A DNA stretch of 64,000 bases from Takakia lepidozioides (GCA_030704615.1 CM060732.1:5208001-5272000), one strand, 5' to 3'. Numbered from the stretch's first letter, positions 2,513-37,407 are shown. Numbers and translations: made by a program. Notes: generated by a model from the letters alone, not told the origin.

Positions 2513-2843
2513 TCACCAGTAATCACCACAAGAACAAATCCCATCTTCAAAGTGGTGAGAGCGGTTAGAGTCCCGTACAACAATTGCTCGGCCAACAATC
2601 TTTGAGTTGAATTTGGTGGAGGTGTGGCAGTCACCACACACTAGAAGATTCTTGATGAGACGGAGAGGCGTCCTAGGGGTCATGCTGATCAGCCCAAAAC
2701 CAATGGCCAGCTTCTCACTGTGGTGGCAAAGAGAAAATTTCTTTTCTCCTCCCCACATCATGCAATACAAAGCGTCTGTTAGGCACATACCCCACCTCCT
2801 TCATCTTCCCAGACAATCTTCTTAGCTCAGCATGGATTTCCTT
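2513..2843 (-). pseudogene. 3' part (E+/DYW deaminase domain) of a PLS-PPR editing-factor pseudogene, split by the retroelement
   Basis: [13 protein letters not shown]...[16 protein letters not shown]...[14 protein letters not shown]; upstream KEIHAEL joins HPKIK at about 14049 on the far side of the insertion; frameshifted. Confidence 0.9.
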
Positions 2844-9830: not shown

Positions 9831-10282
9831 CTGAGCAACGTAGAGTGCGGAGTGCACTCCCCTTCATGGTCTCTCTGCCTACCGAGACGGTACAGGCAGC
9901 AAGTGGGGGCGAGCTGGTGAGGACCACTGGGTGTAGACATCCATGGCACACGTGGGAGGTGCTCGAGGTTCAGAGGGAGTTGGCAGCCAAGGCAGCTGTG
10001 ATGGATGAGGTTGGGGATTCTTCTCGGGATGAGGAGGTTCTCAATGATGAGATGATGGGGCAGGATGAGGCCTTGTCATTGACTGAGCAGGAAGGGAGTA
10101 CTGCTCAAGAGGTTGTAGCATAGCAACCACGGGACGCGTCCTCTACCTCTAAGCCCACTGGACTTAAGGTTGCAGTTACGGAGGACAATTGGGAGCCTGA
10201 CATTGAACCCATTGTCACCGGAGGAGAGAGACGACGTATACGGCGGTTCCTGAGGGCTTATAGGAATTGTTTTGCCTTCAGT

Positions 10283-11163: not shown

Positions 11164-11208
11164 TGGGAAGATGAGCAAGAACAAGCTTTTCAAGAGCTCA
11201 AGGCGAGG

Positions 11209-13257: not shown

Positions 13258-13506
13258 TGGGAGTGGATACAACCATGGAAGGCTAACAAGAAACGCAAGG
13301 CCCAGCTACTAGGAGACCTTGAACACACGAGGTCCTGGCTCAAGTTCACAGATTGCAAGACGGCGATTAACGATGGGGCTACTCTTGTACCCGGCCTCTT
13401 GGTCTATAGAGTTTGAGTGCAATAGGGGCAGTGATAGAGGACTTAGTACGGCTGTGGCTATTACATCTTGTAGCTATCTGGAGGTAGAGGGACCTACCCA
13501 CCAGCT

Positions 13507-13516
13507 AGGGGGGCGA
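13507..13516 (+). promoter_or_regulatory. Polypurine tract
   Basis: aggggggcga just before the TG that starts the full 3' LTR at 13518. Confidence 0.7.
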
Positions 13517-13517
13517 T

Positions 13518-13962
13518 TGTGGCAGACTACTTTATTGTGTATATATATGTGGTGTGGTTTGGACAGCGATGTAGTTGTGTAGCGATATGTATGCGCACGA
13601 CAGCTGTCAAGTTAAATAAGCACAGTGTGAAAAGAACTAGAATAAAGCTAGTTATTTGTATTTAACACTTGGATTTAGGTCAAGTGTTAAATCAGGTGTC
13701 AAGTTTAGTTTGACACCTGAACGGCCTTATCTTCACGAGAGCGGCAGTCGCGTAGCTCATCTCTCTCGAGTTGAGCCTGCGCGACCGAGCTCCTTCATGC
13801 GTTTAGATCTGAGTGTGCTTATGATGGGAGTGTAGGTTGTTGTGGGGTGGAGTCCCCATAGCGTGGGGTGCCCCTGGCTCGACTTCTATTTTAAAGAGTG
13901 ATAGCGATGGATTTCATATTTCTTGTGTTGAGAGTGTGTGTCCTTTTTAGCTCTATTTATCA
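13518..13962 (+). repeat. Complete 3' LTR (A+B, 445 bp, TG...CA)
   Basis: Starts tgtggcag after the PPT and ends tttatca, the same end that precedes the PBS in the 5' copy. Confidence 0.88.
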
Positions 13963-14048
13963 TTGTGGCAGACTACTTTATTGTGCATATATATGTGGTG
14001 TGGTTTGGACAACGATGTAGTTGTGTAGCGATATGTATGCGCACGACA
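13963..14048 (+). repeat. Extra copy of LTR segment A at the right end of the element
   Basis: 86-bp match to 13517-13602 with two transitions; ends gcacgaca. Confidence 0.95.
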
Positions 14049-14215
14049 TCTTAATTTTGGGATGCAACTTGTCATCTACAACGAAGGTTTGCACCTTGTT
14101 GCAAATCTCAATGCAGCAGCGACCTGGCTCCTTTTCAACCCCTCTGACCTTCATCATTCTTCTCACCTTTACAGTATCAACCCACCTGCCAGCTACAACA
14201 TACACTACAACACAC
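14049..14215 (-). pseudogene. E2/PG-box part of the PPR-DYW pseudogene split by the retroelement
   Basis: VYVVAGRWVDTVKVRRMMKVRGVEKEPGRCCIEICNKVQTFVVDDKLHPKIK. Confidence 0.88.
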
Positions 14216-15265: not shown

Positions 15266-16194
15266 CATTCCAGCCTGTTTTCCTTGTTATCAGGATTCAG
15301 AGTCATCCCTAAATTTTCAGGTTGAATCACTAGAAGCATTCGTGTCATTTACCACTGGGGTAACAACTCATTTTGAGTCGTAAAAATAAAAAAACTGGGA
15401 TCGACTGAAAGTTACAAACGACTAGTTACAACAGACGTGGTAGTTGGGCTGGACATCCAATGATTGGAGTGGTAAGGGACGCAGACGCGCGAACAACTAC
15501 TCAGCGATTAATGCGATTAATGCTGAAGAACCACGTGGCGTAACCAGGCGGGCCGCCCGTGTGTCTGACCTTTTGGGCTGACTTTGACTTTTCCCTCCGG
15601 ATGAGTGGACCGACTCACCGGAGCGCGGTGACACATGGACGCGGACGACGATGTGGACGCGGACGTGGCGGCGCCACGACGAGCAGCATTGCTGTCACGT
15701 GGCCACGGGCCCGGGGCGCCACGTGGTAGTAGACCACATAACTTGCAGTGCTACATGCCCAGTGGCAATTGCGACTGCGGAAGTTGGCACAACCACTGCT
15801 TTACTACTTTAAATGAAGTGCTCGAAATTACTTGAACAATCATTCATAGTGATTCATGCTTTGAAGTTTTGGTGTTTGTAGTGAGTCGACTAGTACATAC
15901 GTATGTAATGCCATACAAGAGAATTAATCGTGCATTAGAAGTGCACAAACGATGAAAGACATGCCATGAAACAAAATGAAATGAAAATGAATGAAATGAA
16001 ACAAAATGGTACTTTATTACATCTGCAAAAAGCTCAAAGAGCTTATGGGACAAAATGAAAAAAAATAAAGTAAAAAAACAGCCCAAAAGCTACTGCTGCT
16101 CTGGGGATTGCCTAAGGGTCAAGGCCTCGTGCAAGTAAGCTGCCAAGCAGTTCTGATCCTCATAATGCAAGACTTCAGTGAGTTCCACGGAATA

Positions 16195-17210
16195 GACCAT
16201 CTATCCATGGAGGTTTCTTGTAGTTATTGATCCACAGGGAATCATAGGTAATCTTGTGCTTGAAATTTGGCCCTCTAGGATGAATCTGGACCCACACTCT
16301 ATCCCTGCTCCTTCAGCTATCCATGCCCCTGCACAAATCATGCATTCATCGTTGCCTTGCTGCTAGAAGCTAACAATGACAGCCTAGATTTGTTCAGCTA
16401 AGAAACACCCAACTCAGCTTATCACACTAGTTCCTATGCTCAATTGCGTCTGCTACTCTCTGAAATGTAGCAGGCATTCACCTTTTTGCCTCGGTTGTCC
16501 CATCATTGACTGGGGGCAGAAAAGTATTCATTCCACAGCTTCTCCTCATGTCTGTTACTTGTTTTTTGATACTTTCATGTTGTCACATAGCAGTATCATG
16601 TCAAAGTCACTCCAAACTAGATTCACTCAACCAGCTAACTTGCAGAATTCAACACGGAAATTTTGGGCCGATTCTGATAAGAGGGAAAAGCAGGGTGAAA
16701 TGTGTTGAAGAAGATGCCTTTGTTAACAATGTCTGATTTTATCAATTGTGCCGTTGCTACCAGTTGACCATCTACCCATTCAGGTTTCTTGTAGCTTCAT
16801 AGTTAGTCTGGAGCTTGAAGTCCGGCCCTCTTGGGTGAATCTACAGCCACACTCTATCCCTGCTCCTTCAGCTATCCATGCCTCGCACAAATCATGCATA
16901 CAACCTTGCCTTGTTGCTAGCAGTTGACGATGACAGCCTAGACTTGTTCTAGGAAGCACCCAACTCAACTTATCACACTAGTTCCTGCGCTCAATTGCAT
17001 CTGCTACTCTCTATAATCCAACAAACATTCACCTTCTTGCCTCGATTGTCCCACCATAGACTAGGGTCAGAAAAGTATTCATTCCACAACTTCTCCTCGT
17101 CTGTGTTACCTGTTACTGATACTTTCCTGTTGTCACATTGGCAGAATCATGTCAAAATCACTCCAAACTATCAAAGCTTCACTCAACAAGCTAACTTGCA
17201 GAACTACAAA
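16195..17210 (-). pseudogene. Two tandem intron-split OSB-type PDF motifs (degenerate 5' part of the PDF-PPR family)
   Basis: EEKLWNEYFSAPSQ*WDNRGKK | gtgaat...gtccag | IHPRGPNFKHKITYDSLWINNYKKPPWIDG; second copy at about 16760-17100. Confidence 0.75.
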
Positions 17211-18479
17211 ACACCTCTCAAACCAACCCAGTTCCAAACAACAAGAACCATTCTAGATGATACACACTTTGTTTGCCATATCCAACACACCATAATTAGT
17301 TGTCAGCCTTACATAAGCCTTCTCCAGTCCATCAGGCTTGTTGCACAAAATTGCAAGCCCAGAGGTAAGAATACATGTAATAAGCACCCAAAGGGAAATA
17401 GTCCCTGCTCTACCAAGCCAACCTTGAGGTTCCATTCTAAGCTTGAGATTGCGACTTGACACAGCTAACAGCAATCATGTCAGCTAATTGAGTGTTCCTG
17501 AAGATGTTGAAAATAATCAATCATGGTAATCTCATGTTGTCGCCCACACAATAAGAAAGGGTGTGATGGTAACTCAGGCAGGGCTACTCCAACCCTACAT
17601 GACAAGTGGATTATGTTTCAGAGTGAAAAGGATAGCGTAGCATTCTGGCAGGCAAAGAATTGGTATGCTCTTGAGAAAACGAGCGGTATACTTTGTGAGG
17701 GGACTGCTTCTCATCCAAAGGCACTACAGCTTGTGGATGTACCGTCATGCCTACCATGACAAAGAGGTGAGAATCTGTGAAAAGCCTCACGTCAGCCATG
17801 AAGACAACATATTCAGTCCAGATCATACCTTATCAAAGTGTTAAACTTCTTTGTCTGGATGTCGATCGTACATCTTCTTCACTTGAAATCCGGCCCTCTT
17901 ATGAATCTGGACCCACACTCTATCCCTGGTCCTTCAGCTATCCATGCCAGTGTACAAACCATGAATACATCTTCAGCCTTGCTGCTAGCAGCTGAAGCAA
18001 CTGACACTGACGACGTGAAGTTCTTCGAGGAAACACCCCAACCCTACCTACAGTAACATGTCAAAATCACTACAAAACCACCATAGATTCACCAACGAGC
18101 TTCTCCACATCTACGTTATCTGTTTTTGGATAATTCCTGCTGCCACATTGGCAATAACTCCAGGTTAGGCTTCAGGGCAGTGTTCAGGCTGACATCTAGT
18201 ACATTTCCAGCTTTGACTATGTCACCATGAACCAGTAAACAGATGCAAAGAGCAAAGGAGAATGTAATTTCCCAATGTCTAAGCATCGTAGCTCCATGCA
18301 CGTAAGCCCCCAAGCATTTTTTATCCTCGTAATGGGAGTAGACCTAGAGGGGGTTGTGTCCAAAACTGTAGAGGTTTGGTGCCCAAAGACTGTCTGAAAA
18401 TGAGGTTAGACATAAACTACCCTAGACTTGTTTTCAATCTATGACAAGAACAAAGACCCGATGTCATGATCTCAGCAAG

Positions 18480-19845
18480 CACCCCTTTATAATGTCACCA
18501 TGGACCTTATAATTGTCCTTTTCTAGGGCTGCCAAGCTTGCACATACAATGCACATTGCAAACACAAAGAAACCTGATGTGGTCAATGGGCTAAACACAC
18601 CTTAATTCATGCACCATTTGCTTAGAGGTCTTCAAGGACTCCATCCCACTGTACATATCCTGCAATCATGGGCTCCATGATCATACCACATTTCGTTCAG
18701 CCATATTGTTGAACACTCCCTTTGCATCCTTGATGCACCCACATTTGGCATACATGTCTATGTAAGGGTACTATTCAGAATGACATATGGTACAATTCCA
18801 GCTTTGACGATGTCACCATGGACCTCTTTGCCCTCTTGGCCTTGACCCGGCCAGGCTGCACTCCTTCCCACAACAATTGCTCATATGTCTCCAATTCCTC
18901 TTTGAGCTTGGCATACATCTCCACAAGAGTATTGTTCAGAATGAAATCTGCCACAATTCCAGCTTTGACGATGCAGCCATGGATCTCTTTGCCCTTCTCC
19001 AGTAGGCTTGCACATGCACTACAAACACAAACAAATGTAATTTGTGGTCGGACTTCACCCCCTCCCAAACCATTTGCTCATAGGTCTCCAAAACCTGCAA
19101 TCCCCGCCCCTGTTGTGCATGTCCTGTGATCAGCACGTTCCATGACACCACATTTCGCTCAGCCATATTGTTGAACACTCCCTGTCCACAAGGGTATTGT
19201 TCAAAATGACATCTGCCACAATTCCAGCTTTGACGATGCAACCATGGACCTCTTTGCCCTTCTCCAGCAGGCTCGCACATGCACTACAAACACAAACAAA
19301 CGTAATGTGCTCGGGCTTCACCCCCTAGACCCACATCATTTGCTCATAGGTCTCCAAAACCCGCAATCCCCGCCCATGTTGTGCATGTCCTGCGATCATC
19401 ACGTTCCACCACACCACATTTTGCTCAGCCATATTGTTGAACACTCCTTGTCCACAAGGGAATGCTCCCACGTTTGGCATACATGTCGACGAGGTATTGT
19501 TACATCTGGTACAGTTCCAGTTTTGACAATGTCACGATGGACCTCTTTGCCCTTTACCAGGTCTCCAAGTCTCCAGGGCTGCCAGGTTTGCACATGCATT
19601 GCAAACACAAATGAACGTGACCCGGTCAGGCTGCACCCCTTCTTGCAACATTTGCTCATATGTCTCCAATGCCCTCATCCCGCACACATGCTGGCCATAT
19701 CTTGCGAGATTCAAAGTGTTCCATGAGACAACATCTCGTTCAGCCATGTTATAAACTCTCCCTTCGCAACTTCATAGGTCTCCAAAGCCTCCATCCCACG
19801 TCCCTGCTGTGCATACCCTTCAAGCATCGCACTCCACGACACTAG
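18480..19845 (-). pseudogene. Degenerate PLS-PPR repeat fragments
   Basis: Repeated ITFVCVCSACASL..KGKEVHG.IVKAGI..DVILNNTLVD and VFNNMAERNVVSWN, broken by deletions and frameshifts. Confidence 0.85.
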
Positions 19846-20159
19846 ATCTCGGCAAAACAGGCTGAAATAGGTTGAAGAAGAAGGTGCCCTCACCACATTG
19901 TCCTCTACCCATTGCGGATTACCTCCATGCCTTCTTGAGCCTCACAGTAAAGGCACCAAATTAACTGAGGTATTCCTCTGTCCTACTGGCCCCAACTATT
20001 GACAGCTCTTGGGATTACTCCCTTAACTGACTGATCAATGCACTGTGTTGGTGCCAGCAAAACTTTCAAGCAGCCTTACCCTCCACATGCTAACTGCCTC
20101 ACCCTAGTTCATGATGACACAGACAGGATGGCTGCATGACCAAGAAGTGTGTTACGTAC

Positions 20160-21748
20160 AGGAATGGGAAGATTGTCGTCAGAAGACGCAAGAACCTTGA
20201 ATGCTTTGGGTTGGATCATACGAGCCTCGGCTCGTGTAAGGCCCTAAAGGAATCCCATATGTCTCTCTCTTAAGGACTCCTTAAGCACGACCTACAATAA
20301 CATAGCAAGTTTTTGTGGGTCACTACTTCCTGAAGTCATCTCTATTTTGCAACAAACCAGCTTCCATCTATTTGCCACCTTTACTGCTCCCTCAAATTTC
20401 CTTTTGCATTCTTGCTCTAAATTTGCCCCCTTCACCACCAAAATCTTCCAGGTCAAAAAATTGTAGCTGAAGTGAGCTTATACCTGCATCCAAACGGCGG
20501 TGTCATGAAGAGCCTGCTTTGGAAATTCTGTAAGGTTGGTATGAACTCACATTTCACAACTTCCAGTACAGAAGATGACCATCTAGGATGGTAGAGGCTC
20601 CCGTTTGCTCCCCTGTTTTCCTTCCCCCTCTCACCCTTTTCCTGCCGAACTGGGAGGGTCTATGGCCACAAAACTAGAGCATATCAAGTCTAATAAGCAC
20701 ACCTCTCCCTATTGCAGCAACCTAAGTTTGGAGAAGAGTAGAGACACTTGTATCAAGCTTGTTGATGTTAAGGCCGCAGCTCCCAAGCCATGGGGATGTG
20801 CTCACAAGAAGGGGAAGGAAGGGAATATTGAACATGCAGCGATATCCAAAAGGGTAAGAAATTGATTATAACTCTCAAGATTCATCCACGCAAAACATGT
20901 AACCCCCCTCAGCAAGATCACTAACTGGTTACCTGCGAGTAGTGGCATTTGTCGGCAATCACTTGAGTTGTGTTTGCTGCCCGTCGAAGGTCTGATGAAT
21001 AGACTGCCGCTATCTGCAGGTGTGCACCTGCCAATCTTTCTGCCACCTGTTGCACGTGAGGATGCATGGAGAGGAATATGTCATTTCATCAGCCAACAAC
21101 AACCCGGCCGCCGTTCTCATATCAGCTACCAACCGATTCAATTTGACGCAATGCCAAGTTTATCCTCTTCAAGATGACTGCATCTTCGTCCAGGACTTCC
21201 ATGAGTAAAGTAGCGACTCAAGGAAAAAAAATTCCATCTAGTGGAAGGTTGTGACTTTACAAGTAGGCAATTGGACAATGCAATGATTTCGACCTTCAAA
21301 TTCGGAAAACAGAACACACACGAGCATAAAGTATGTTCTATGGGCTTGGTCAAAAGAGAAAGATGCCTACTACCAACTGCCCACCTCTACAGCACATTTT
21401 TGCCCGCTTTAGCAGCCCAAATGCTGAGAGGGCAGAGTCTACACTTAACTGCCAGCGCCTGCAGCTTGTCGAGGTTGTTGAGGTCAGACTCTGCATGTCC
21501 CTACCAACCCAGTGCTCTGTTTAGTCCTGTGCACTTGCGACCCACCCTGCCTTGGACTTCCCTCCTCCCTCACTTCATGTTCATCACAACCTGTTTGTTT
21601 CTCTACATTAACGCCACAACAGATGTGCAAGCATATGGCATGAGGCAGGCTTATGCACCTGAAAGCGGTCCCCAGCGTTCCAGGTGGTCTCGCCGTGGCG
21701 AACTACCAACATCTCTACTTGAGTGCTCCCCAGTGCTACTTCCCCCAT
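20160..21748 (-). pseudogene. Histidine phosphatase / phosphoglycerate mutase-like gene: four exons, premature stop, 3' exons not found
   Basis: Exons MGEV..VVRHGETTWNAGDRFQ / GHAESDLN..QALA / VAERLAG..AVYSSDLRRA..SQ / VVLKESLRERHMGFL*GLT..PIP (20160-20291), with GT-AG borders. Confidence 0.82.
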
Positions 21749-22659
21749 AGCTGCCTGCTTATCCTTTATCTCCCTTGGGATCCATGCGGCAGAGCTTTGT
21801 GGTTTTATACGCCTTGGGGGACCATTTTTGGCAGAAGGGACACCCTGTCCCATTGGCAGTAGACTGACCATGAACCCAAGAAGACCTCTTGTGCGTGCTG
21901 CTTGTATCTGTAGTCAGGTAATGTGGGATTGGTCCGTAAGAACCACCACGGTACAGCTGAGCGGGCAGAGATTAAAATATGGGCCGCTAAGACCGAGCTG
22001 ATTCCCCCAAGAACCTTGTGATCATCAGGAAGAATACCAAATCATGGTACAAAGGGGAGCCAAGAGCCCACATTTTCACATAATGCGCCCCCTACGCCAT
22101 AAACGCTTGCAACAACAGGACATGGGCCTCAATTTGGTCTTCGTCCTTCTCGCATCACTTGCTCGTCTCTCTCCCAAGCCTCCATCCCTCTCCCAACACT
22201 TAGACAAATTCAGGCAAAGGACAAAGTTACTCTTCCACCCTTAGATCATTTTACATCCGACGATTAGAACAATCTCTACGAGCCACACAAGCCCTAAAAT
22301 ACATTAGAATATTCCACGTCATGAGCCATGTGGAGCACTTATAAAAGTTCCATTTTTGAATAGGGTGTGCAATGAATGCCTAGTTGTTAAGAGTCCTTCT
22401 CTAGTGCTTAAAACCACTTGTAATTGCTGTTTTAAAAAAAAAAACAATTTACGTAATTGAATTAAATCGCCGCGAATATTGCGCCGACTGCAGAGTCATT
22501 GATGCAACTTCTATCCGCCATTAGAAATGCGAATTTATCCGTTATGACTGTGCAGTAGTAACAAACATCTCAAAGTTGTTCCCTCAGTGGTTTTGGACAT
22601 GCAGTCGATTCGGAAAAGACACGAATGCTTCTAGTGAATTCTGCAAGTTAGCTCGACGT

Positions 22660-24130
22660 TGGTGCAAAAAGGTGAATGCCTGTTGGAAGCGCAAGTCAGC
22701 ATATGAACTAGTGTAAAGAAGTAGGGTTAGGGTGTTTGCTGGAACAAATCTAGGCTATCATTGTCAGCTGCTAGCAGCAAGGTAAGGAGGTACTATGCAT
22801 GATTTGTGCAGAGGTATGGATAGCCGAAGGAGCAGGGATAGAGTGTGGGTCCAGATTCATCCAAGAGGGCCGGATTTCAAGATCCAGATTACCTATGAAT
22901 CCCTGTGGAATGATAGCTACAAGAAACCTGCATGCGTAGATGGTCAACTGTCATGCCGCAGCAGCAGCGGCACAACTGATAAAATCAGGCACTGGTAATC
23001 GAGGCACCTTCTTCACATTCACCCTGTTTTTCCCTCTTATCAGAATCGGCCCTGAATTTCCATGTTGAATTCTGCAAGTTAGCTGGTTGAGTGAATGTAG
23101 TTTGGAGTGACTTTGCCATGATACTGCCACTGTCACAACAGGAAAATATATAAAAAAACGTAACAGAGATGAGGAGAAGCTGTGGAATGAATACTTTTCT
23201 GACTCCAGTCAATGGTGGGACACCAGGCAAAAAGGTGAATGTTTGTTAGATTACAGGAGAGTAGCAGACGCAATTCAGTATAGGAACTAGTGTAATAAGC
23301 TGAGTTGGGTGTTTCCTAGAACAAATCTAGGCTGTCATTATCAGCTGCAAGGCAAGGATGTATGCATCATTTGTGCAGAGGCATGGATAGCTGAAGGAGC
23401 AGGGATAGAGTGTGGGTCCAGATTCATCCAAGAGGGCTGGACTTCAAGCTCCAGATTACCTTGATTTCAGGTAGATCAGTAGTTACAAGAAACCTGCATG
23501 TGTAGATGGTCAACTAAAGGCAGCAGTTGTAGTGGCACAGTTGATAAAATCAGGCACCTCAACCATGACCACAGCTGTTGAAATTAGAGGATCAAGAGAG
23601 GGAGTCCACAATGCCTCTTCTGGCACTTCTAGGCATGTGAAGATACTTTGTGCCGCAGGCAGGCTGACAGAGGCTCTACAGACTCTAAACCAAGGAGGCA
23701 TTTCAGCAGATTCAGATATGTCTGTCTGTTGCTTAAGTGCATCAAGATGGATGGTCTGGAAGCTGGAAAGCAGGTGCACACTCACATTATCCAAAGTGGA
23801 TTCACACCAAATGTTTTTCTACTCGACACCCTTGTCTGCAACATGTATGTTAAGTGCGGGAGCATCATGGATGCTCACCAAGTGTTCAACAGAATGCCTC
23901 AATGATCTTTGATCACATGGAATATTATGTTGGCAGGATTTACAAAGCGTAGGTGTGGTAGGAATGCTTAGGAGACCTATGAGCAAATGTTGCGTGAAGG
24001 GGTGAAGCCCAACCACATCGCGTTTGTTTGTGTTTGCAATGCGTGTGCAAGCCTGGGAGCTCTGGAAAAGAGGGAAGAGGTCCATAGTGACATTGTCAAA
24101 GTTGGATTTGTACCAGATGTCATCCTGGAA
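22660..24130 (+). pseudogene. PDF-PDF-PLS-PPR pseudogene fragment
   Basis: IHPRGPDFK..SLWNDSYKKPACVDGQL (from 22855), linker, EKLWNEYFSDSSQWWD, intron 23235-23421, IHPRGLDFK.., then HVKILCAAGRLTEALQ and L/S/P motifs; stops and frameshifts. Confidence 0.8.
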
Positions 24131-24429
24131 GCAGAAGCGGCAACAGCCCAATTGATAGAACAATTCGCTGCTAATGAAGGTATCTTCTTCAATACATTTC
24201 ACCCTGTTTTGCCATGTTATCAGAGTCGTCCCTAATTTAGAATTCTGCAAGTTAGCTCGTTCATGATGTGAGCTGGCATGAGTTTTATAAAGATCCTTCA
24301 CGATGGTGGGACAACCGCAATCACAAGGTGTGGCTTTTCTTAATGTACGATGTGAAGAAGTTTGTCCATCCTGCAAAGGTGGGTTCTTGGCTCCTGTTAG
24401 TACCATGATTTGGTGTTCTTCCGGATGTT

Positions 24430-26280
24430 TACAAGGTTCTTGGGAGAGTCAGCTTGGTCTTAGTAGGTCGTGTTTCAATCTCTGCCTGCTCAGCTGCACC
24501 GTGGTGGTTCTTACAGACCAATCCAACATTACCTGACTACAGACACAAACATCACACACAAGAGGTCATTTTGGGTTGATGCTCGGTCAAATCCTCCATG
24601 GGTCAAGGACAATGTGGTGAGGGCACCTTCTTCTTTAACCTGTTGCAGCCTGTTTTGCCCCCTCATCAGACTTGGCCTTGAGATGCATATTGAATTATGT
24701 AAGTTAGCTCATTGGGTGGATCTGTGGTGGTTTGGAGTGACTTTGAACTGGGTTGGGGTGTTTGTTGGAACAATTCTAGGCTGTCATTGTCAGCTGCTAG
24801 CAGCAAGGCAAGGATGTATGCATGATTTGTGCAGAGCTATAGATAGCTGAAGGGGCAGGGATAGAGTGTGGGTCCAGATTCATCCAAGAGGGCTGGATTT
24901 CAAGCTCCAGATTACCTATGATTCCATGTGGATCAATAGCTACAAGAAACCTGTTGCATGGGTAGATGGTCAAGTAAAGGTAGCAGCTGCAGCGGCACAG
25001 TTGATAAAATCAAGCACCTCAACCATGACCACAGCTTCTGAAAGAGGATCAAGAGAGGGAGGCCACAATGCCTCTTCCGCTGGGCATATGAAGATGCTTT
25101 GTGAGGCAGGCAGACTGACAGAGGCTCTACAACTTTAAACCAACAAGGCATTTCAGCAGATTCAGATACGTCTGTCTGTCTCTTGCTTAAGTGCATCAAG
25201 ATTAAAGGTCTGGAAGCTGGAAACAGGTGCACACTCACATTATCCCAAAGTGGATTAACGCCAATGTGGGAGCATCATGGATGCTCACCAGGTTTTCCAC
25301 AGAGTGCCTCAACGATCTTGATCACGTGGAATATAATGTTGGCAGGATTTACCAAGGATGGGTGTGGTAGGAGTGCTTTGGAAACCTATGAGCAACTGCT
25401 GCGCGAAGGGTGAAACCCAACCACATCACATTTGTTTGTGTTTGCCATGCGTGTGCAAGGCTGGGAGCTCTGGAAAAGGGGAAAGAGGTCCATGGTGACA
25501 TCGTCAAAGCTGGATTTGTACGAGATGTCATTCTGAACACTGCCCTGGTGGACATATATGCCAAATGTGGGTGCATTGAGGATGCGAAGGGAGTTTTCAA
25601 CACTATGGCTGAACAAGATGTGGTGTCATGAGATGTGGTGTCATGGAACGTGGGGGGAATGTGATGCTTGTAGGGTATGCACAGCAGGGACATGGAATGG
25701 AGGCTTTGGAGACCTATGATCAAATATTGATGGGGGAAGGGGTGAAGCCCAACCACATCACGTTGCAGCATACTGGTACTTCACAGCCATGGCGGCTCTC
25801 TCAGCCCCTCCATTTTTTTTTCTTTTGGTTTTTTTGGCGCTAGGAGAGAGCAGCAGCTCTGCTGTCTCCTTCCCCTTGATTATGCCGATCGTTAAAGTGG
25901 AAATTGTCATTATGAACTCTGCCTTGGTGGACATGTATGCCAAATGTGGGTGCAACAAGCCTGATGTGAAGGGAGATTTTGACAATATGGCTGAACAAGA
26001 TGTGGTATTTTGGAGTGCCATGATTGCAAGGTATGTGCAGCATGGGTATGGGATTAAGGCTTTGGAAACATAAGAGCAAATGATGTGGGAAGGGATGAAG
26101 CTAGACTAGGCCGTCATGTTCATTTGTTTTTGTAATTTGTCATTCTGAACATTCCCCTGGTGTACATCTACGTCAAATGTGAACTTGGCAGCCCTCAAAA
26201 GGGCACAAAGGTCCATGATGACATCGTCAAAGCTGGAGTTGTCACTCTAAACACTGCCTTGGTGGATATGTATGTTAAGG
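24430..26280 (+). pseudogene. Second plus-strand PDF-PPR pseudogene fragment
   Basis: IHPRGLDFKLQITYDSMWINSYKKPVAWVDGQ..HMKMLCEAGRLTEALQ in one frame (24875-25138), followed by degenerate PLS motifs. Confidence 0.8.
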
Positions 26281-27289
26281 CAGCCCTGGAAGTGGATGTC
26301 ACTTTGGATGACAAGGTAGCTGGCACCACCATTCTCTGGAACTGCCTGAATTCATTCTCAAATGATTTCTAATGTTCTCTTGACATGTCCACGATAGTGC
26401 TGGACCTAGCTGCACAGCAGATTATCCTTACTCAATGACTTCAGTTGGGCAGTGATCTATGGATATGGCAACATGGCCCTCATGTTGGTCATTTGTAGAA
26501 TGTGACCAAAACTTGTTTTGCAAAACACTCTTGATATAAACCAATTTTGAGCCATCCAAATGTTTTTGGTTCCTACCTGTATTTGTATTATATGTTTTGT
26601 TGTATTTGTAATATATTTTCAATGCAGTGCAACGAATCAAAATATTTAAATACAATACCCACTAATTCACACACGTACAGATATAAACTAAAAGTAAATG
26701 AAAAAAACGAAATAACAGTAATAAACAAAAAAAACCAAATATTAAATAAAAAGCCTCCCAATTATATATATATATATACACCCCCAGAGTGAAACCTATT
26801 TACTAAAATGTGTCCTCTTTTACTGCTTCACAGTAGAATATTACACTATACAAAGTCAAGCAAACTCACTATCACTGATTCACAGTCAAACCGTATACTA
26901 AACATCATGGAACATAGTCAATATGTTCCACTTCAGTTAAACCACTTTACTACACGTCATGCATCCACGTCACTCTGCCCTTAAGCCACTCACTACACGT
27001 CATGCATCCACCTTATAATTCAGTTAAACCACTTTATTACACGTCATAGCTACGTCATAGCCACATCGCATCCACGTCATACTGTGCTGCCTACACGTCA
27101 CCCCCTAGGTTTTACTGTCACATTTCACTGTCAGAAACTGGCATTTGGATTCGATTGTTTGGCTGAAACGACTTGACCTTTGTCACGCATGTTCGACTTT
27201 GGAGGCTTGGAGTAAAAATGTCGCAAACGACTCAAAAATGAGTCAAATACAGAGTCGAAAAGCCCAGCTTATATTGTAGTGATAGATGT

Positions 27290-29490
27290 TTGATAGCAAC
27301 ATAAGTCGCGGCATCCTGTTCATTCCACTTGAGGATAGATGTTGCCGCACATTGAGCCATCTCTACATTGTTCATGGATTCTGCAGGCACTAAACAAGGC
27401 CTTCCACACCACAACATCTGGATTGATTGGCATTTTATTAATCAGGTCCACTGCCTCATCCAGTTGTCCCGCACGTCCAAGAAGGTCACCATGCAGCCAA
27501 AGTGCTATACTGTCGGAGTGACACCATGATCTTGAATCAGGGAATCGAAGTAGCGTCTACCTTCATTCAGAAGGCCAGTGTGGCTGCATTTAGAGAGAAC
27601 ACATACTGCTTCAAGCCGTTCTTTTGCATTCCTTCAAATAGTTGCAGACCTCCCTATGACAACCATGTTGTGCATATCCTGCGACCATTGCATTCCACGA
27701 CACCACATCTCATTCAGCCATATTGTCGAACACTCCCTTTGCATCCTCCACGCACCCACATTTGACATACATATCCACCAGGGTAGAGTTCAGGATCACA
27801 TCTGGTACAATTTCAGCTCTGACGATGTCGCCATGCACCTCTTCGCCCTTTTTCAGGGCTGCCAGGCTTGCACGCGCACTGCAAACGCACACAAACGTGA
27901 TGTGGTTGGGCTTCACCCCGTCGCACATCATTTGCTCATAGTCCTCCATCCCACGTCCCTGTTGTGCATACCTTGCAAGCACCGCACTCCACGACACCAC
28001 ACCTCGTTCAGCCATAGTGTCGAACACTCCCTTTGCATCCTAGATGCACCCACATTTTGCAAACATGTCCACCAGGGTATTGTTCAGAATGACAGCTGGT
28101 ACAATTCCAGCTCTGAAGATGTCGCCATGGACCACTTTACCCCTTTCTAGAGCTGCCAGGCTTGCACAAGCATTGCAAACGCACCCAACGTGATGTGGTC
28201 GGGCTTCACCCCTTCTCCCATCATTTGTTCATAAGTCTCCAAAGCCTCCATACCACGTTCTTGCTGTGCATACCCTGCAAGCATCGCGTCCAATGGCACC
28301 ACATCTCGTTCAGTCATATTGTTGAAAACTCCCTTCACATCCTTAATGCACCCACATTTGGCATGCATGTCCACCAGAGCAGTTTGCAAAATGACATCTG
28401 GTACAATTCCAGCTTTGACGATGTCACCATGGACCTCTTTCCCCTTTTCCAGAGCTCCCCGGCTTGCACACGCATTGTAAACACAAACAAATGTGATGTG
28501 GTTGGGCTTCACCCTTTCGCGCAGCATTTGCTTATAGGTCTCCAAAGCATTCCTAGCACACCCGTGCTTGGTAAATCCTGCCAACATTATGTTCCACATG
28601 ATCAAACATTGTTGAGGCATTCTGTTGAACACTTGGTGAGCATCTATGATGCTCCCACACGTAACATACATGTTGACAAGGGAGTTGAGTAGAAAAAAAA
28701 TTGACGTGAATTCATTTTGGATAATGTGAGTGTGCACCTGCTTTCCAGCTTCCAGACCTCCCATCTTGATGCACTTAAGCAAGAGATAAGCATACGTATC
28801 TGAATCTGTTGAAATGCCTCCTTGGTTTATAGTCTGTAGAGCCTCTGCTAGTCTGCCTGTCGCACGAAGTATCTTCACATGCCCAGAAGTGCCAGAAGAG
28901 GTATTGTGGACTCCCTCTCTTGATCCTATTTCAGAAGTTGTGGCCATGGATGAGGTGCCTGATTTCATCAACTGTGCCGCTGCAACTGCTGCATTCAGTT
29001 GACCATCTACCCAGAGAGACCACATATAAAGGTGATACTGTCCGGCTTCAAGTCGTTCTTTTACATTCCTTCAAATAGTTGCAGGACCTCCCTATGACAA
29101 CCATGCTGGGCATATCCTGCGATCATTGAATTCCACGACACCACATTTTGTTCAGTCATCCTGTCGAACACTCCCTTTGCATCCTCGATGCACTCACATT
29201 TTGATATACAGGTCCAGCAGGGTAGTGTTCAGGATGACATCTGGTACAAATCCAGCTTTGACGATGTTACCATGGACCTCATTGCATCTTTCCAGGGCTG
29301 CCAGGCTTGCACAAGCATTGCAAACACAAACAAATGTGATGTGGTTGGGCTTCACCCTTTCGCACATCAATTGCTCATAGGTCTCCAAAGCCTCCATCCC
29401 GCCCCTTGCTGTGCATATCCTGCAATCATCGCACTCCACGACACCACATTTCTTTCAGCCATACTGTCGAACACTCCCTTTGCACCCTAA
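27290..29490 (-). pseudogene. Minus-strand PLS-PPR(-E) pseudogene(s) of the same family
   Basis: 292-aa ORF 28147-29025 begins WVDGQL (PDF tail) then PLS motifs; later P2/L2/S2/E-like remnants reach about 27290. Confidence 0.85.
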
Positions 29491-32400
29491 ACTTGTGCCG
29501 CTGCAGCTGTTGCCTTTAGTTGACCATCTACCCATGCAGGTTTCTTGTAGCTATTGATCCACAGGGAATCATAGTTAATCTTGTGCTTGAAATCTGACCC
29601 TCTTGGATGCTTCTGTACACACACTCTACCCTTGCTCTTTCAGCTATCCATGTCTCTCCACAAATCACGCATTCATCCTTGCCTTGCTGCTAACAGCTGA
29701 CAATGACAGCCTATATTTGTTGTAGGAAACACCCAACTCAGCTTATCACACTAGTTCCTATGCTCATTGCGTCTGCTACTCTCTGTAATCCAACAGGCAT
29801 TCACCTTTCTCTGGTGAGAAACATAAGTCCTCGCCATCGAACACGAGGTCAAGTGGATGTCGTACCTGGCGGAGGGTTTATTGGACGAGGAGGAAGTCCA
29901 GCCTTCTCATCCTTTCTTTTGGTGTTCCAGCCAGCAGCCCGTGGAGCAAGCTGATTGCAGGTAGCGGTTTCGTCTTCTAGTTTTTTTATCAAGTTTACAA
30001 AGACGATTCAGTTGGTTGCATATGTCATGTCACTAGTCTTGTTGTGCTATGTATCTGAGGATAAGCCGCAAAGTGAACTCAACTGAGCACCTGGGACCTC
30101 ATCAAGGGACTTCCACGAATTTACCGAGGTTAAGCGGAGATACAGCTTAGATTTGTTCTAGGAAACACCCAACTCAACGTTCCTATGCTCATTGCGTTTG
30201 CTACTCTCTGTAATCCAACAGGCATCCACCTTTTTGTCTCGATTGTCCCACCATTGACTGTGGTCAGAAAAGTATTCTTTCCACAGCTTCTCCTTGTCTC
30301 TCTTACTTGTTTCTGGATACTTTGGCAGTATCATGTCAAAGTCACTCCAACTATCAAAGGTTCACCCAACCAGCTAACTTGCAGAATTCAACATGGAAAT
30401 TTAGGGCCGGTTCTGATAAGAGGGAACCCACACTCCATCCCTGCTCCTTCAGCTATCCATGCCTCTGCACAAATCATGCATCTATCCTTGCCTTGCTGCT
30501 AGCAACATACAATGACAGCCTAGAATTCTTCTAGCAAACACCCCCGCATTTAACATACATGTTGACGAGGGTGCCGAGGAGAAAAACATTTGGCGTGAAT
30601 CCACTTTGGATAATGTGAGTGTGCACCTACTTTCCAGCTTCCATGCCTTTCACCTTGATGCACTTATGTAAGAGTCAGACATACGTTTCTGAATCTGCTG
30701 AAATGCCTCCTTGGTTTAAAGTCTGTAGAGCCTCTTTCAATCTGCCTGCCTCACAAAGCATCTTCACATGCCCAGAAGTGCCAGAAGTGGCATTGTGGAC
30801 TCCCTCTCTTGATCCTCTTCCAGAGGCTGTGGTCATGGTTGAGGTGCCTGATTTTATCAACTGTGCCGTTGCAGCTGCTGCCTTTAGTTGACCATCTACC
30901 CATGCAGGTTTCTTGTAGCTATTGATTCACAGGGAATCATAGGTAATCTTGTGCTTGAAATCTGGCTCTCTTGGATGATTCTATACACACACTCTACCCC
31001 TGCTTTGGCATACATGTCCACCAGGGTATTGTTCAGGATCACATCTGGTACGATTCCAGCTCTGACGATGTCGCCATGCACCTCTTTGCCCTTTTCCATG
31101 CTGCTAGGCTTGCATACGCATTACAAATGCAACCGAACGTGATGTGGTTGGGCTTCACCCCTTCGCGCATCATTTGCTCATACGCCTGTACCTCTGTTTA
31201 CCAACTTTGAAAGTCTCAAGGCTGAGCCAAACGCTCAGGTCCTTTTGGGCCTAGTTATTGGGCAAACCACACACAACAGGTTGATGCTTGTATAAAGGGA
31301 TTTCTAGAGGACATCTGGAAAACCCGGATCAATTGTTTATTCCAAGGTAAGTCTTACTACGGGCGTCGGCCCCTGACAAAGGTAGGTTCTGTCCCTTTGT
31401 GTTCTGCTCAAACTGGGCGTGGAGTCAATGGCCACAAGGCTACGGCAAACAATGTCTCTACAACCAGGCTGTTGAGTTTGCATGTGGACAAGTGCTTCGG
31501 CAATTACCGGAAAATAAGGTGATACCTGCTGCTGCAGAGATAAGATAAAACCTAGTGGGAGCCAATCCCACAAAATGCTACCCTTGGCACTAGACTGAAA
31601 TTTAAACCTGGGGCGGGGAGTCTACCTTTGAACAATAAACAGATGCAAAGTGAAAAAGGGAGATTGTCAATGCCCAATGCGCAGGCGGCTTGAAAACAAT
31701 ATCCAATTTCTCATACAATGCCTATTCCCAATAGAGAGGGACCCTCTTCAGGACCATCAAGAACATAGTCCCTGCGTCTTTGTTCACCAACGTCAAAATC
31801 TCGAGGCTGAGCCTAAAGCCTCGGGGGTCTAATTGATGGGCAACTCACACACAACAGATTCATGGTTGTGTGAAGGGTTTTTTTAAGGGATATATGGAAA
31901 GCTCGAACTATTGTTTTTTCCAAGGTAAGTCCCACTACCGGAGTGAGCCCATCACAAAGGTAGAGTCTGTTCCCTCTTGTTCCTCGTCTCTCTTACCCGT
32001 TTCTGGATACTTTGGCAGTATCATGTCAAAGTCACTCTAACTATCAAAGGTTCACCCAACCAGCTAACTTGCAGAATTCAACATGAAAATTTAGGGCCGG
32101 TTTTGATAAGAGGGAACCCACACTCCATCCCTGCTCCTTCAGCTATCCATGCCTCTGCACAAATCATGCATACATCCTTGCCTTGCTGCTAGCAACATAC
32201 AATGACAGCCTAGAATTCTTCTAGCAAACACCCCAACCATACTTATCAGACTAGTTCCTATGCTGAGTTGCATCTGCTTCCAACAGGCATTCACCTTTTT
32301 GTCTCCATTGTCCCACAATTGACTGGCTCCGGAGAAGTGTTCATTCCAAAGCTTCTCCTCCTCTCTTTTATCTGTTTTTGGATACTCTCCTGCTGCCACA

Positions 32401-32720
32401 TCGGCACTAATTTGTCAAATTCATTCCAAATCACCAAAGATCCACTGCAACATATGGCAAATGAAGCTACAACTTGGATGCAGACACCATATTCAATATG
32501 CAAATTTAGGGCCGAGTATGATGAAAGCGCAAAACAGGCTGAAATAGGTACTAATAGGAGGCAGAGATTGATGCACGGCCTGGCAAGACCAAGCTGACTC
32601 TTGCAAGAACCTATTGTGTGTGCTGCTTGTGTCTGTAGTCAGATAATCCATGAGAATCACCACGGTGCATTCGAGCAGGCAGAGATTGAAACACATCTGA
32701 CTCTCCCAAGAACCTTGTCC
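29490..32720 (-). pseudogene. Shuffled PDF-exon, intron and PPR fragments
   Basis: Several partial copies, e.g. EEEKLWNEHFSGASQLWDNGDKK|gtgaat near 32290-32360; 30295-30540 is duplicated at 31985-32230. Confidence 0.7.
31190..31980 (+). mobile_element. Two fragments of the LINE 3' end
   Basis: Similar to 46310-46585 and 46120-46520 (ggctgagcc.aa, caaactgggcg..gtcaatggccacaaggctacggcaaac). Confidence 0.8.
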
Positions 32721-34350
32721 CGCGCTGCAACCTCGCACGGTTATTTTCGGACAGTCCGGGCAGACATTAAAACAAATTCGGGCAATCCGGGCAGACATAA
32801 AAAAAATTGACGACGTACGAAACGTGGCTACGATGACGTGGCTATGAAACGTGGCGACGATGATGTGGCACTATGGCACCCTATTCCTGCTCTACGCTAA
32901 ACTAGCTCTCCTTCGCTTCGCTCCCTTAGGTGGGGCCCGCCGCTGGCGAATTCGCCAACGGGAATGAGCAAAGGTGCATGTGCGCGGGCGTAGTACAACA
33001 GCTTCAGACACGAAGTCGGGTGCACGTTCCAAGAGCTGTTTCTCTCAATGGGAGCAAGTCAGGTGGAGGTGAGAGGAGATCATGTTCCTCCAGTACCTAG
33101 CAGGCGTAGTAGTAGCTCGGGGCTGTGTGTTAGCATTTCGTAGGGGCGAGGGGCGAGAATGACTAGAGAAACTTCCCTACGGAATAAGAAGAAACACAGG
33201 ATTGACCGCAATTTTCACAAAGTGAGAAGGGCCAGACGCCGAGGCAACAAACACAGAGGGAAAGGTCGGGTTGAAAGTCGCCATGACCATTCGGCCAAGC
33301 ACACACTTCTGTCGTATGAGTATTCTAGTGAACAAACATCTTGTAACACATAGGTTTGAGTCTCTATCGGCATGTGCTCCTTGACCAAGCTCCAGCTTAT
33401 AATGTGAGCGGGCGGAGTAGAACTATGGCCCTTTCGGTGAATATGTGCAGCAGGATAGCTGTCACAGAGATGGCCTGCGTCAATCTCCTGAACGCGCAGG
33501 CAGTAGCCATGTCTTTTTGCGGACAATGGGTGGAAGGCCTCACACCATGCACCAGAGTAGATGGCCAGGCTGTGGAGCTGAAATGGGCATCTACCTTGGC
33601 AGTGCTGGGCCCTACACCCTTGCAAGTGATGGCTGTGACGCCTCCCACGAAATCTGAAGGAAGGTAGGGACATGTCACTTCTTGCGTGGGCTCTTGTGCA
33701 TCCAAACTGTGTGCGTCGTAGAGATCGAGTACTAGAGACTGCATCCATTTTGAACACTTTATGGTTAAGCAAGGGCTGTCGAGGAACTCTCTTCCTTGAC
33801 CTCCTTCCATCGGGTCCTTCAGTAGCTCCTGCATATTTCACACTCCTAATGCTTATAGTTTATTTCGAATAAATGAGAGAGATACATAGGCTTATTATGG
33901 GACGCCCATGCTAGCATCCTCAATGATACTCAGACAAGTAGGAAATATGCATGTTCTAAGCGTGTTTTGCATGCAGGCCAAGCAACACGCTAAGAACAGT
34001 TGTGTCTGGAGTTCTTTTCGGATCCTTCTCAGTGGTGGGATATCAAGTTTAATAAGGTGGCACTATCTTTATAACAACCCTGTAAGAGTTTGTCAAGGAG
34101 GACTTGTGGCAGAAGCTTGCATGACAGTGTGTCGCCAACTAGATTCTGTCTCCAGTTCGTTGGTTTTATGAAACTTTTCCTCTTCTTTCGGTAAAAACAG
34201 CAAAAGCTAATCTTTTTACTACTATTACGAGGTTGTTCTTCCTTCTTAGTGGGGTTGAATGTAGATTTTTCATGGTTGTTCCTTCCTAGTTGAAAAGTAC
34301 TTGGAGCCTTGTGGGTGTAGTCTCATTTATGTGATACTTAGGCTGAAACT

Positions 34351-37300
34351 ATGGCTGCTCAGCTGCCCACTAGTGGTTTTGACAGGGAAGTCCAAAATCA
34401 CCATACTTCAGACATGATTGCCTAAAGGAGGCTCTCTGGATTGAGCCTTTGCTGAACCCTCTGTGGGTGAAAGCAAAGGCAACCGGCATGATACAAGGTC
34501 AAGCACAATCTGGTGATGGTCCAGCTCATGGTCGAAGGACAGAGTCCCGTCAAACAAGGGCTGCAGATGAATATGATTATCACCCACAATCAGCCTTGCT
34601 TGAAGCATCAAAAGAGGGAGTCAACAACAACTGTTCTCACACTCGTGGGGATGTGAGGACTCTATGTAAGGCAGGACGTCTGAAGGATGTGCTGCATATT
34701 TTGAACCAAGGAGACATTCAGGTAGATGCCAATACATATATTTGTGTCTTGCAGGAGTGTACCGACATGAAAGGCCTAAGAGAGGGAAAGCAGGTGCATG
34801 CCCACATCACCCGAAGTGGAATCAAGCCAAACATCTTTCTACTAAATACCCTCGTCAACATGTATGCAAAGTGCGGGAGTGTGGAGGATGCACGCCAAGT
34901 GTTTGACAAAATGCCTGAATGAGATATTTGTACATGGAATATAATTCTGGGAGGATATGCAGAACATGGGGGTGGTAGGGAGGCTTTTGAGATGTATGAG
35001 CAAATGCAACGGGAAGTGGTGACACCTGATAGGGTCACATTCATTGGCATTCTGAATGCGTGTGCCAGCCTTGGAGCCCAGAGCAAGGGCAAAGAGGTGC
35101 ATGCTGATATCATCGAAGCTAGAATTGGCCTAGATATCATTCTGGAGACTGCCCTTGCTGCTATGTATGCCAAATGTGGGAGCCTAAGGGATGCACACAT
35201 AGTGTTTGACAGTATGGCCCACCGAAATGTGATATCCTGGAATGTGATGATCACAGGATATTCTCAGCATGGTTGTGGTAGGGAGGCTTCGGGTATTTAT
35301 GAGCAAATGATACAAGAGGGGATGGAGCCCAACAAGGTCACATTCATTTGCGTTCTCCATGCGCGTGCCAGCCTAGGAGCCCTAGAAAAGGGCAAAGAGT
35401 CCATGCTGATATCATCAAAGCTGGAATTGCATCATATATCAATTTGGAGAACGCGCTTGTTACCATGTATGCCAAATGTGGGAGCGTGGTGGATGCACAG
35501 CAAGTGTTTGACAGAATGACACTACGAAATACAGTCTCATGGAGTGCATCGATCGCAGGATATGCACAGCATGGTTATGGTAGGGAGGCTTTGGAGAGCT
35601 ATGAGCAAATGATACGGGATGGCGGGATCCCAGATAAGTTCAAGTTCACTTTCAATGCGCGTGCCAGCTTGGCACCCTGGAAAAGGGTCAGAAGGTCCAT
35701 GCTGACATCATAAAAGCTGGGATTGTTTCAGACATCATTTTGGAGACTGCCCTTGTTAACATGTACGCCAAGTGCAGGAACATGAAGGATGCACTCCAAG
35801 TGTTTGATAAAATGGCTGACCGAGATGTGAGTGCAATGATTGCAGGATATGTTCAGCATGGTTGTGGTATGGAGGCTTTTCAGATCTATGAGCAGATGAC
35901 ACGGGAAGGAGTCACTCCCAACAGGTCACATTCATTTGTGCTCTCAATGCATGTGCCAACCTGGCAGCCCTGAAAAAGGGCAAAGAGGTCCATGCTAACA
36001 TCATTGAAGCTGGAACTCCCTCAAGTATTGTTTTGGAGAATGCCCTTGTAAGCATGTATTTGAAATGTGGAAGCATGAAGAATGCTCGTCAAGTGTTTGA
36101 CCACATGGCTGAACGAGATGTTGTCTCCTGGAGCTCCATGATTACAGGATATGCTCAGCATGAGAGTGGTAGGGGGGCTCTTGAGACCTACGAGCAAATG
36201 ATACAGGAAGGGGTTACTCCCGACATTGTCACATTCACTTGTGTTCTCAATGCATGTGCCAGCCTGGCAGCACTGGGAAGGGGCAAAAAGGTCCATGCAG
36301 ACATTGTCAAAGCTGGCATTCCATCAGATATCATTCTAGAGACTGCCCTTGCTGCCATGTATGCGAAATGCGGGCACATGCTTTGCTTCCATTTCTTCGA
36401 AGGACTACTGGGAGTAGTGAGTTCCTGGAAATACTAGAAGCCCTCCGGGTGCACGTCAAGTGTTTGACAATGGCTGTACGAGATGTCGTCTCTTGGAGTG
36501 TGATCATTGCAGGATATGCTCAACATGGGTGTGCTGTGGAGGCCCTGCAACTATTCGAACAAATGCCAAAGGAATGCCTGAAGCCAGACAGTATTACCTA
36601 TATATGTGTTCTCTCTGCATGTAGCCATGTGGGCCTAGTGGATGAAGGCTATCACTATTTTGATTCCAAAAGTCGAGATCATGGCCTCACTCCTACAGCA
36701 GAACATTTCGGCTGCATGGTGGACCTTCTTGGCCGAGCAGGGCGATCGGGTGAGGCAGAGGACTTCATTACAAAATGCCAACTGAACCAGATGCTTCTGT
36801 GTTGGGGGCCTTGCTTGGTGCCTGCAGAATTCATGGGAACGTGGAGGTTGCTGAACGTGCAGCACAACGCCTTCTGAAGTGGGATTCACAGGATGCTGCA
36901 ACTTATGTGCTTCTTTTGAACATCTATGCTGCTGCTGGCAGATGGGACGATACAGCGAAGGTGAGAAGAATGATGCAGGACAAGGGTTTCAGGAAGGAAC
37001 CAGGGTGCAGCTGGATTGAGGTGGACAACCAGGTGCATACATTCATTGTAGATGACAAATCGCATCGCCAAATTGATGAATACCATGCTTAGCTGAACTG
37101 GTTGTCTGGGCAGATGAGTGTGGCTGGGTACATGCAGCCTGACACAGGCTGTGTGTTGCCTGATGTGGTGGAGGAAAAAGAATGTTCTCTTCGCCACCAC
37201 AGTGAAAAGTTGGCCATTGCTTTTGGGCTGATCAGCATGCCCTACGGGACGCCTATCCGTGTCATCAAGAATCTTCGGGTGTGTGTTGAATGCCACACAG

Positions 37301-37407
37301 CCACCAAGTTCATCTCGAAGATTGTTGGGCGAGATGTTGTTGTACGTGATAGTAACTGCTTTCACCACTTCAAAGATGGAGCTTGCTCTTGTGAGGATTC
37401 CTGGTAA
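34351..37407 (+). pseudogene. Full-length PLS-E-DYW (PG-box type) RNA-editing factor pseudogene
   Basis: About five PLS triplets, P2L2S2, E1/E2, [41 protein letters not shown]; several stops and frameshifts; start approximate. Confidence 0.9.

Follow-up and report, generated by a model that had tools for sequence, protein, structure and literature searches.

Decayed PLS-PPR genes of Takakia lepidozioides carry the intron-split PDF motif of OSB proteins, which bind single-stranded DNA in plant organelles

Analysis of a 64,000-nucleotide stretch of the Takakia lepidozioides genome (GCA_030704615.1 CM060732.1:5208001-5272000; hereafter the window, with positions counted from its first letter) revealed broken PLS-class PPR genes that carry, ahead of the first PPR, the PDF motif of the OSB proteins, which bind single-stranded DNA in plant organelles; the motif is split by an intron. 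The motif in the window is the PDF motif of OSB proteins. We somewhat favour the reading, drawn from sequence comparison, that the window holds a decayed cluster of a seed-free-plant PDF-PLS-PPR-E-DYW family, the intact members of which would use their PDFs as a sequence-blind grip on single-stranded DNA (ssDNA) that holds a predicted editing factor at nucleoids. The fusion is apparently an undescribed variant of the PLS-PPR-DYW editing factors, present here as pseudogenes. A preliminary description of the window, made from its sequence, had proposed an OSB-type motif joined to PLS-PPRs and all copies broken, and both proposals held: open relatives of the fusion are annotated in Diphasiastrum and Adiantum, and no intact reading frame was found among the window copies. 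It had described a single motif type, where three were found (A, B and C), and had overlooked both the most complete copy, at 33976-37407, and what was probably a second recruitment from an OSB gene.

A profile of the PDF motif was built from OSB proteins, as the preliminary description had suggested. A degenerate core pattern retrieved 46 metagenome and 58 viral loci, and ten PDF motifs from eight SSB+PDF open reading frames (ORFs) among these loci made up the profile, in which the core is fixed by the retrieval pattern and the flanks lie outside it. One source ORF is Arabidopsis OSB3 (Q8GWJ4), another clusters with Panicum OSB2-like proteins, and the Pfam SSB domain was present on three scanned ORFs of the set. 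The type A copy at 16550-16190 (minus strand) scored 66.8 bits when spliced and 26.1 bits unspliced, the predicted splice outscoring every other choice among 96 GT-AG pairs (runner-up, 61.2 bits), while 12,000 shuffled sequences reached at most 19.0 bits; spliced type B scored 63.5 bits with an X at its break and spliced type C 50.4 bits. Against the intron-free coding sequences of OSBs, the rows of exon 1 and exon 2 align in direct contact, no gap lying between them, and the roughly 50 residues show the conserved W, W-D-x-R, K, P-D-F, L-W and P-x-W of a PDF motif. The OSB-type identity proposed earlier was thereby upheld. A chance match was ruled out by the shuffles and the splice-choice controls, and the accidental joining of a neighbouring OSB gene by the absent OB fold: four OSB queries matched the window through their PDF parts only, besides one chance-level hit (E 0.51). 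Pfam holds no model for the PDF motif, and none of five PDF-only exon pieces scanned gave a match; homolog searches with half motifs returned 0/878 and 0/1 candidates, the halves being too short where the full profile succeeded.

Between 16 and 37 kb, both strands are strewn with pieces of broken PLS-PPR genes in a mosaic arrangement. Self-comparison resolved a repeated unit consisting of a 69-nt exon, an intron of 183-196 nt and an exon of about 100 nt, followed either by a spacer and a further unit or by a linker and PPRs. The GT-AG intron of about 190 bp noted earlier was present at 23235-23421 (187 nt, phase 0, AAG|GTGAAT...GTCCAG|ATT), and the three motif types have one intron position in common, in phase 0 between W-W-D-x4-K and x2-P-x2-P-D-F; among the splice sites checked, 9/9 donors were GT and 10/11 acceptors AG. 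Most copies are of type A, type B comprises 24256-24616 and fragments, and type C occupies 33976-34500. The introns of B and C share 40 bases at their 3' ends (77.5%, E 1e-5) and that of A is unlike either, while the linkers of A and C are homologous (75% over 72 nt). Type A copies are 89% and 88% alike in their exons and 89% in their introns, as expected of recent dead duplicates. Tandem motifs, also described before, were seen at 17101-16190 (minus) and 22672-23520 (plus). The first exon of the fusion gene was not found in the window. Continuity from motif through linker into the PLS array, claimed earlier for two places, held in part: at 24875-25135 the frame stays open no further than into the first PPR helix and then meets a stop, and the open frame at 29070-28150 does encode PLS repeats, as P-L-S triplets with a 101-residue period, but retains only the last few motif residues, behind an unrelated PPR fragment. 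Pfam PPR matches were obtained in the window.

The type C locus on the plus strand (33976-37407) comprises PDF, linker, PLS array, E and DYW, and is the sole locus in the window with E and DYW in line. PDF exon 1 (33976..34056, stop at 33991) is followed by a phase-0 GT-AG intron of 329 nt (34057..34385); exon 2 of the PDF, the linker and the PLS-PPR array come next (34386..36838), in frame to 34919 with a stop at 34920; E, E+ with a PG box and a DYW deaminase with HSE and CxxC zinc ligands occupy 36754..37407, with a stop at 37090. Pfam assigned the E motif (PF20431, E 2.5e-23) and DYW (PF14432, E 6.4e-37), the latter being of the C-to-U type and retaining the PG box and, in HSE and CxxC, the zinc ligands and the catalytic Glu. 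Three premature stops (those given above) and five frame changes downstream of 34920 interrupt the locus. Positions 33967-37407 are collinear with residues 153-945 of the Diphasiastrum protein P0104, including the start of the linker behind the motif, and the type C PDF matches the PPR-proximal lycophyte PDF in as many as 36/56 positions.

Open relatives were sought in the best 120 of 969 profile matches and the best 150 of 1216 matches of a 50%-cluster search, together 241 proteins, in which single-PDF fusions rank low. PDF followed by PPR was found in 27/241 proteins, namely 25 Diphasiastrum loci, one Adiantum capillus-veneris protein (KAI5061374.1) and one single-contig ORF; Diphasiastrum complanatum proteins with PPR domains accounted for 22 of the best 120 profile matches. 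The single-contig ORF, 1371 aa with three PDFs, lies on a contig of 4755 nt and is therefore not an artefact of gene-model joining. Most of the 27 fusions have two or three tandem PDFs, all 27 have them ahead of the first PPR, and the reading frames of P0053 and P0104 are intact, with a PPR period of 101 residues in P0104. No PF00436 (SSB) match occurred on fusions among the profile matches, P0053 included, and no seed-plant fusion was present among the 26 named ones in the two sets of best matches. Measured against P0104, 20 paralogs from Diphasiastrum (13-20 rows for each region) were 72-73% identical in the PDFs, 70-72% in the PPRs, 54-56% in the linkers and 21% in the N-terminus. The conservation of 11 core positions was 0.95-1.00 among 57 fused motifs and 0.92-1.00 among 565 others. 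PDFs that are as conserved as the PPRs, with core residues kept as in OSBs, argue for selection on the fused motif.

Splicing was approached by comparing 2.3 kb of family sequence with two sequencing runs whose RNA status was guessed, in which 3307 and 1689 contigs matched. A junction of the kind that the preliminary description wished to see in transcripts was met in these contigs for type B, the 189-nt GT-AG intron being skipped exactly in three contigs of each run, the shorter flank measuring 54-56 letters; that of type A was not among the 15/153 joints shown. Further contigs run from the end of exon 2 of type A across the linker into the first PPR, and intron-holding contigs are also present. 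In Diphasiastrum, isoform models differ at this junction by a short stretch of sequence.

The 20 nearest neighbours among 622 PDF motifs were PPR-fused in 20/20 cases for type C, 18/20 for type B and 7-11/20 for type A, against a background of 57/622. Type C resembles the lycophyte PPR-proximal motif and type B mostly the motif one before it, whereas type A is nearest to an OSB (P0224, L098), with which it grouped at 100/97 in a 128-row tree and at 97/86 in a 41-row tree. The latter, of 60 columns, placed B, C and 13 lycophyte and fern fused motifs in one group (85/91, unstarred), and forcing type A into this group was marginally rejected (AU test, p 0.04); 44 fused motifs were left out of the 41-row tree, including three of P0157 that the 128-row tree placed among OSBs. 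Two 67-aa gene calls in the cluster of the nearest OSB, one of them on 15 contigs of at most 133 kb, start at the exon 2 junction, so that this OSB, judged from the starts of these gene calls, apparently has the same intron. On these comparisons the PDF module was probably captured from OSB genes, together with its intron, at least twice. Types B and C would descend from an early capture of the exon pair and intron, common to this lineage, lycophytes and ferns; a later one would have copied type A from the lineage's own OSB and placed it before the homologous linker. The window copies are dead products of local duplication.

OSB1-OSB4 are said to go back to Zaegel et al. 2006. They are plant organellar ssDNA-binding proteins (PMC4166229, PMC6963530, PMC6451138, PMC13393729). 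The fusions resemble them in the PDF of about 50 residues, its one to several tandem copies and core residues, and, for type A, the nearest OSB and the apparently shared intron position; unlike them, they lack the SSB/OB fold and carry their PDFs N-terminally before the PPR array instead of C-terminally, and the fusion is not a member of the OSB family. With PLS-class PPR-DYW (PG-box) factors such as PPR56 they share 101-residue triplets, E/E+, PG box and a DYW with HxE and CxxC, but differ by one to three intron-split PDFs before the first PPR; work on PPR56 has used the protein lacking its N-terminus. Fusions of PPR proteins to RRM, MORF or RanBP2 zinc finger (PMC13386178) likewise place an accessory nucleic-acid or editing domain on a PPR protein; those are mostly single genes of the P class, whereas the PDF fusions form an expanded PLS family. 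The earlier statement that no functional description is known still stands, in that no description of a PDF-PPR fusion was found in the searchable literature, subscription papers lying outside it ('PDF domain' with PPR and DYW, 0 hits). The main text of a 2026 editing-factor survey (PMC13386178) mentions neither OSB nor PDF, a 2026 OSB survey was restricted to proteins that combine OB with PDF and does not mention PPR, and the string WWDNR is absent from the supplements of PMC13393729. The PLS-PPR editing factors belong to the plant protein families that have been surveyed best, and still Pfam offers no model for this accessory domain. New here are the three types in one locus, the tandem layout, the probable second capture, the intron apparently shared with an OSB, and a link to phage proteins described below.

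The reading that intact fusions grip ssDNA is favoured because OSB PDFs bind ssDNA and the fused motifs keep the core. OSB1 and OSB2 favour ssDNA over double-stranded DNA or RNA (PMC4166229), the OSB1 PDF alone suffices for ssDNA binding (PMC6963530) and OSB2 binds at about 8-12 nM (PMC6451138). Also in favour of this reading are the occurrence of the motif core on phage annealing proteins (7/14 viral ORFs scanned) and the AlphaFold models, in which every PDF forms a small module of its own on flexible linkers, both described below. A Ser/Ala-rich, acid-poor N-terminus would import the fusion protein into plastids or mitochondria; 7/10 Diphasiastrum N-termini are Ser/Thr-rich (at least 11 of 70) with at most two acidic residues, by a count of composition only. 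The PDFs would then bind ssDNA of transcription bubbles or R-loops, as in OSB, tandem copies adding avidity, and the local concentration of the editing factor would be raised beside nascent transcripts, where the PPR array would read the site and DYW deaminate the C. Several points weigh against this account and the history proposed for it. The type A junction was missing from the joints shown, and the skipped introns could stem from retrocopies, the runs being only guessed to be RNA. The two-origin tree has 60 columns, a marginal AU result and a group named after the first tree. Type A copies in the window show no selection, because their exons are no more alike than their introns, and the type B subtype may be dead throughout, given a one-base surplus in exon 2 common to the three copies compared. 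Full DYW terminates only 2/25 Diphasiastrum proteins. Finally, Physcomitrium PPR56 edits in E. coli with only 14 residues before its first PPR (PMC10482289), catalysis there requiring no N-terminal module, so the PDF module is an accessory at most.

Among the alternatives, the one given most weight, though unlikely, is an RNA role: the PDFs would be a built-in helper that binds or unfolds single-stranded RNA near the target, a cis counterpart of the trans-acting MORF, ORRM and OZ proteins of seed plants. The motif is basic and aromatic, MORF genes were found in seed plants only (PMC13386178), and 26/26 named PDF-PPR matches, among the matches listed, are lycophyte or fern; however, MORFs have been reported in ferns (PMC12561531), the seed-plant absence is that seen in the two sets of best matches, and the fused motifs leave unchanged the core of OSB proteins, whose preference for ssDNA over RNA was given above. 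It is quite improbable that the fusions act on organellar DNA, with the PPRs choosing the site and the PDFs holding ssDNA, thereby blocking repeat recombination or deaminating C in ssDNA. A deaminase bearing an ssDNA module, a combination that probably arose more than once, and the many relatives without DYW, compatible with non-catalytic surveillance, would fit such action, but PLS factors bind RNA, the PLS-E-DYW part has the usual make-up (101-residue triplets, standard PG-type DYW), and no such case appeared by title among the papers listed for PPR, DYW, ssDNA and DNA editing. Very improbable, too, is a role of the PDFs as protein-contact modules for PPR oligomerisation or docking on OSB-coated nucleoids; OSB2 and OSB3 form tetramers (PMC6451138) and the motif is small, mobile and found on unrelated scaffolds (SSB fold, ERF, Rad52, PPR), but the OSB1 PDF binds ssDNA by itself (PMC6963530) and no report of a PDF-mediated protein contact was found. 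We give as little credence to the PDF exons being functionless passengers copied along with a fast-duplicating PPR family: the window has only dead, shuffled copies, the contig counts of the two runs guessed to be RNA show a very large family, and large early-land-plant PPR expansions have been ascribed to dispersed duplication (PMC13386178), and yet the PDFs are conserved like the PPRs, above the linkers, and type C retains the agreement with the lycophyte motif given above.

Should the favoured ssDNA grip apply, there would be a physical tie between the organellar nucleoid and the editing factors of seed-free plants, and co-transcriptional and MORF-free editing could be put to a direct test; as a rule, this N-terminus is cut off for the editing assay in E. 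coli. Repeated capture from OSB genes, which is probable, would point to an advantage, and designer PPR editors offer a place to try out so small and portable a grip on single strands. A bolder proposal, to which we assign a low probability, is that seed-free plants repeatedly built programmable organellar ssDNA binders by adding the ssDNA module of OSB to PPR arrays, as sequence-guided recombination guards or as ssDNA cytidine deaminases that work on the organelle's own genome at transcription bubbles or R-loops; if true, it would tie the RNA-editing machinery to the maintenance and mutation of organellar DNA.

The PDF motif has been described as confined to green plants (PMC4166229). Judged from the viral sequences retrieved, the motif is older than OSB reviews state: its core is encoded in 57/58 viral loci, in 51/57 as a C4 zinc ribbon with flanking CxxC, although these loci were retrieved with the core pattern and the counts provide no base rate. 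Fourteen viral ORFs, hand-picked from 39 distinct ones, were scanned, giving five ERF (four above cut-off), two Rad52/Sak and seven without assignment. Phage ERF (PF04404) and Rad52/Sak (PF04098) annealing proteins terminate in a C4 zinc ribbon containing the PDF core, sharing W-D-N-R-x2-K-x-N-P-x2-P-D-F-K and a downstream Trp with the plant motif; these ribbons are C-terminal, sit on other host proteins and have four cysteines instead of the two flanking helices of PDF. A cysteine-free form nearer to the plant motif occurs in the phage proteins L032, L033, L027 and L006.

AlphaFold predicted the PDF alone (pLDDT 94) as a helix, three short strands and a helix, and P0104 as two separate PDF modules between low-confidence linkers, before a well-predicted PPR solenoid; its DYW was poorly predicted because few rows cover it. 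No solved structure was found by sequence, Foldseek gave three PDB and 15 viral rows, all with E of at least 2, and VIA a best Z of 2.5 among 48,161 chains, neither of which proves a new fold; the ESM Atlas returned generic PPR clusters only, under 0.9. Among individual proteins, P0066 has an additional internal PDF and contains PDF-PPR units twice, Kingdonia P0031 has 13 PDF stretches, and the angiosperm models P0092 and P0093 join OSB-like PDFs to kinesin and ICR2, perhaps as annotation merges.

The remaining pieces on the plus strand begin with a type A intron that has lost exon 1 (22672..22854) and exon 2 as the first of a tandem pair (22855..22992), followed by type A exon 1, one base short near 23224 (23168..23234), the 187-nt intron given above, a frameshifted exon 2 with linker (23422..23660) and the broken start of a PLS-PPR array (23656..24121). 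The type B unit consists of exon 1 with its 5' end replaced by spacer sequence (24256..24327), the phase-0 intron that is skipped in contigs of the two runs (24328..24516) and exon 2 with the surplus base (24517..24616). A type A intron 3' part, exon 2, linker and first PPR helix, with a stop at the end (24756..25138), and broken PLS-PPR repeats (25107..26100) follow. On the minus strand, two tandem type A units (exon 1-intron-exon 2-spacer-exon 1-intron-exon 2) occupy 16190..17101, the second with one stop and no PPR downstream; broken PLS-PPR repeats lie at 18476..19872, and a type B intron and exon 2 fragment with a mutated acceptor at 21843..22078. A type A PDF tail, linker, PLS array, more repeats and an E fragment extend over 27282..29070 (its open frame encoding 307 aa), and further type A pieces are an intron with exon 2 (29499..29804), exon 1 with the 5' part of the intron (30142..30301), and exon 2 with one stop, linker and first PPR repeats (30543..30980). 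Type B fragments, a spacer and type A exon 1 with intron lie at 32118..32718. At 21611-21913 (minus), a fragment of type B exon 2 continues into an exon that resembles a histidine phosphatase, with an RHG motif and a Pfam match below cut-off (PF00300, E 0.0036), and that terminates at a GT; a PDF-histidine phosphatase fusion as a family was rejected, none of the PDF proteins collected carrying RHG[EQ][TS].

An 11.1-kb long terminal repeat (LTR) retrotransposon (2844-13962) has inserted into a PPR gene of the minus strand, between its E part and its DYW part, separating the E-domain fragment of that array (14077..14202, minus) from its frameshifted DYW domain (2515..2816, minus). Reverse transcriptase (RT), RNase H and integrase were assigned by Pfam, and the element is very young because its 358-bp LTRs (2844-3201 and 13605-13962) are 100% identical; its right end is rearranged, since a 90-bp direct repeat (97%; 13516-13605 and 13962-14051) flanks the right LTR. 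A captured 3' half of DYW (6927-7059, minus; PF14432, E 2.3e-21) lies in the element just before its gag-like ORF, and a PHD-finger-like Cys/His pattern was seen by eye behind the integrase (13100-13260, plus). The same element is Ty3/gypsy-like and at 8014-9540 (plus), between its protease and its RT, contains a stretch resembling a C5 cytosine methyltransferase, with a Pfam match below cut-off (PF00145, E 0.002); methyltransferase-bearing retrotransposons occur in charophyte algae and dinoflagellates. Fragments of a non-LTR, LINE-like (long interspersed nuclear element) RT lie at 49460-53260, with a PF00078 match (E 1.3e-13) at 49460-49930.

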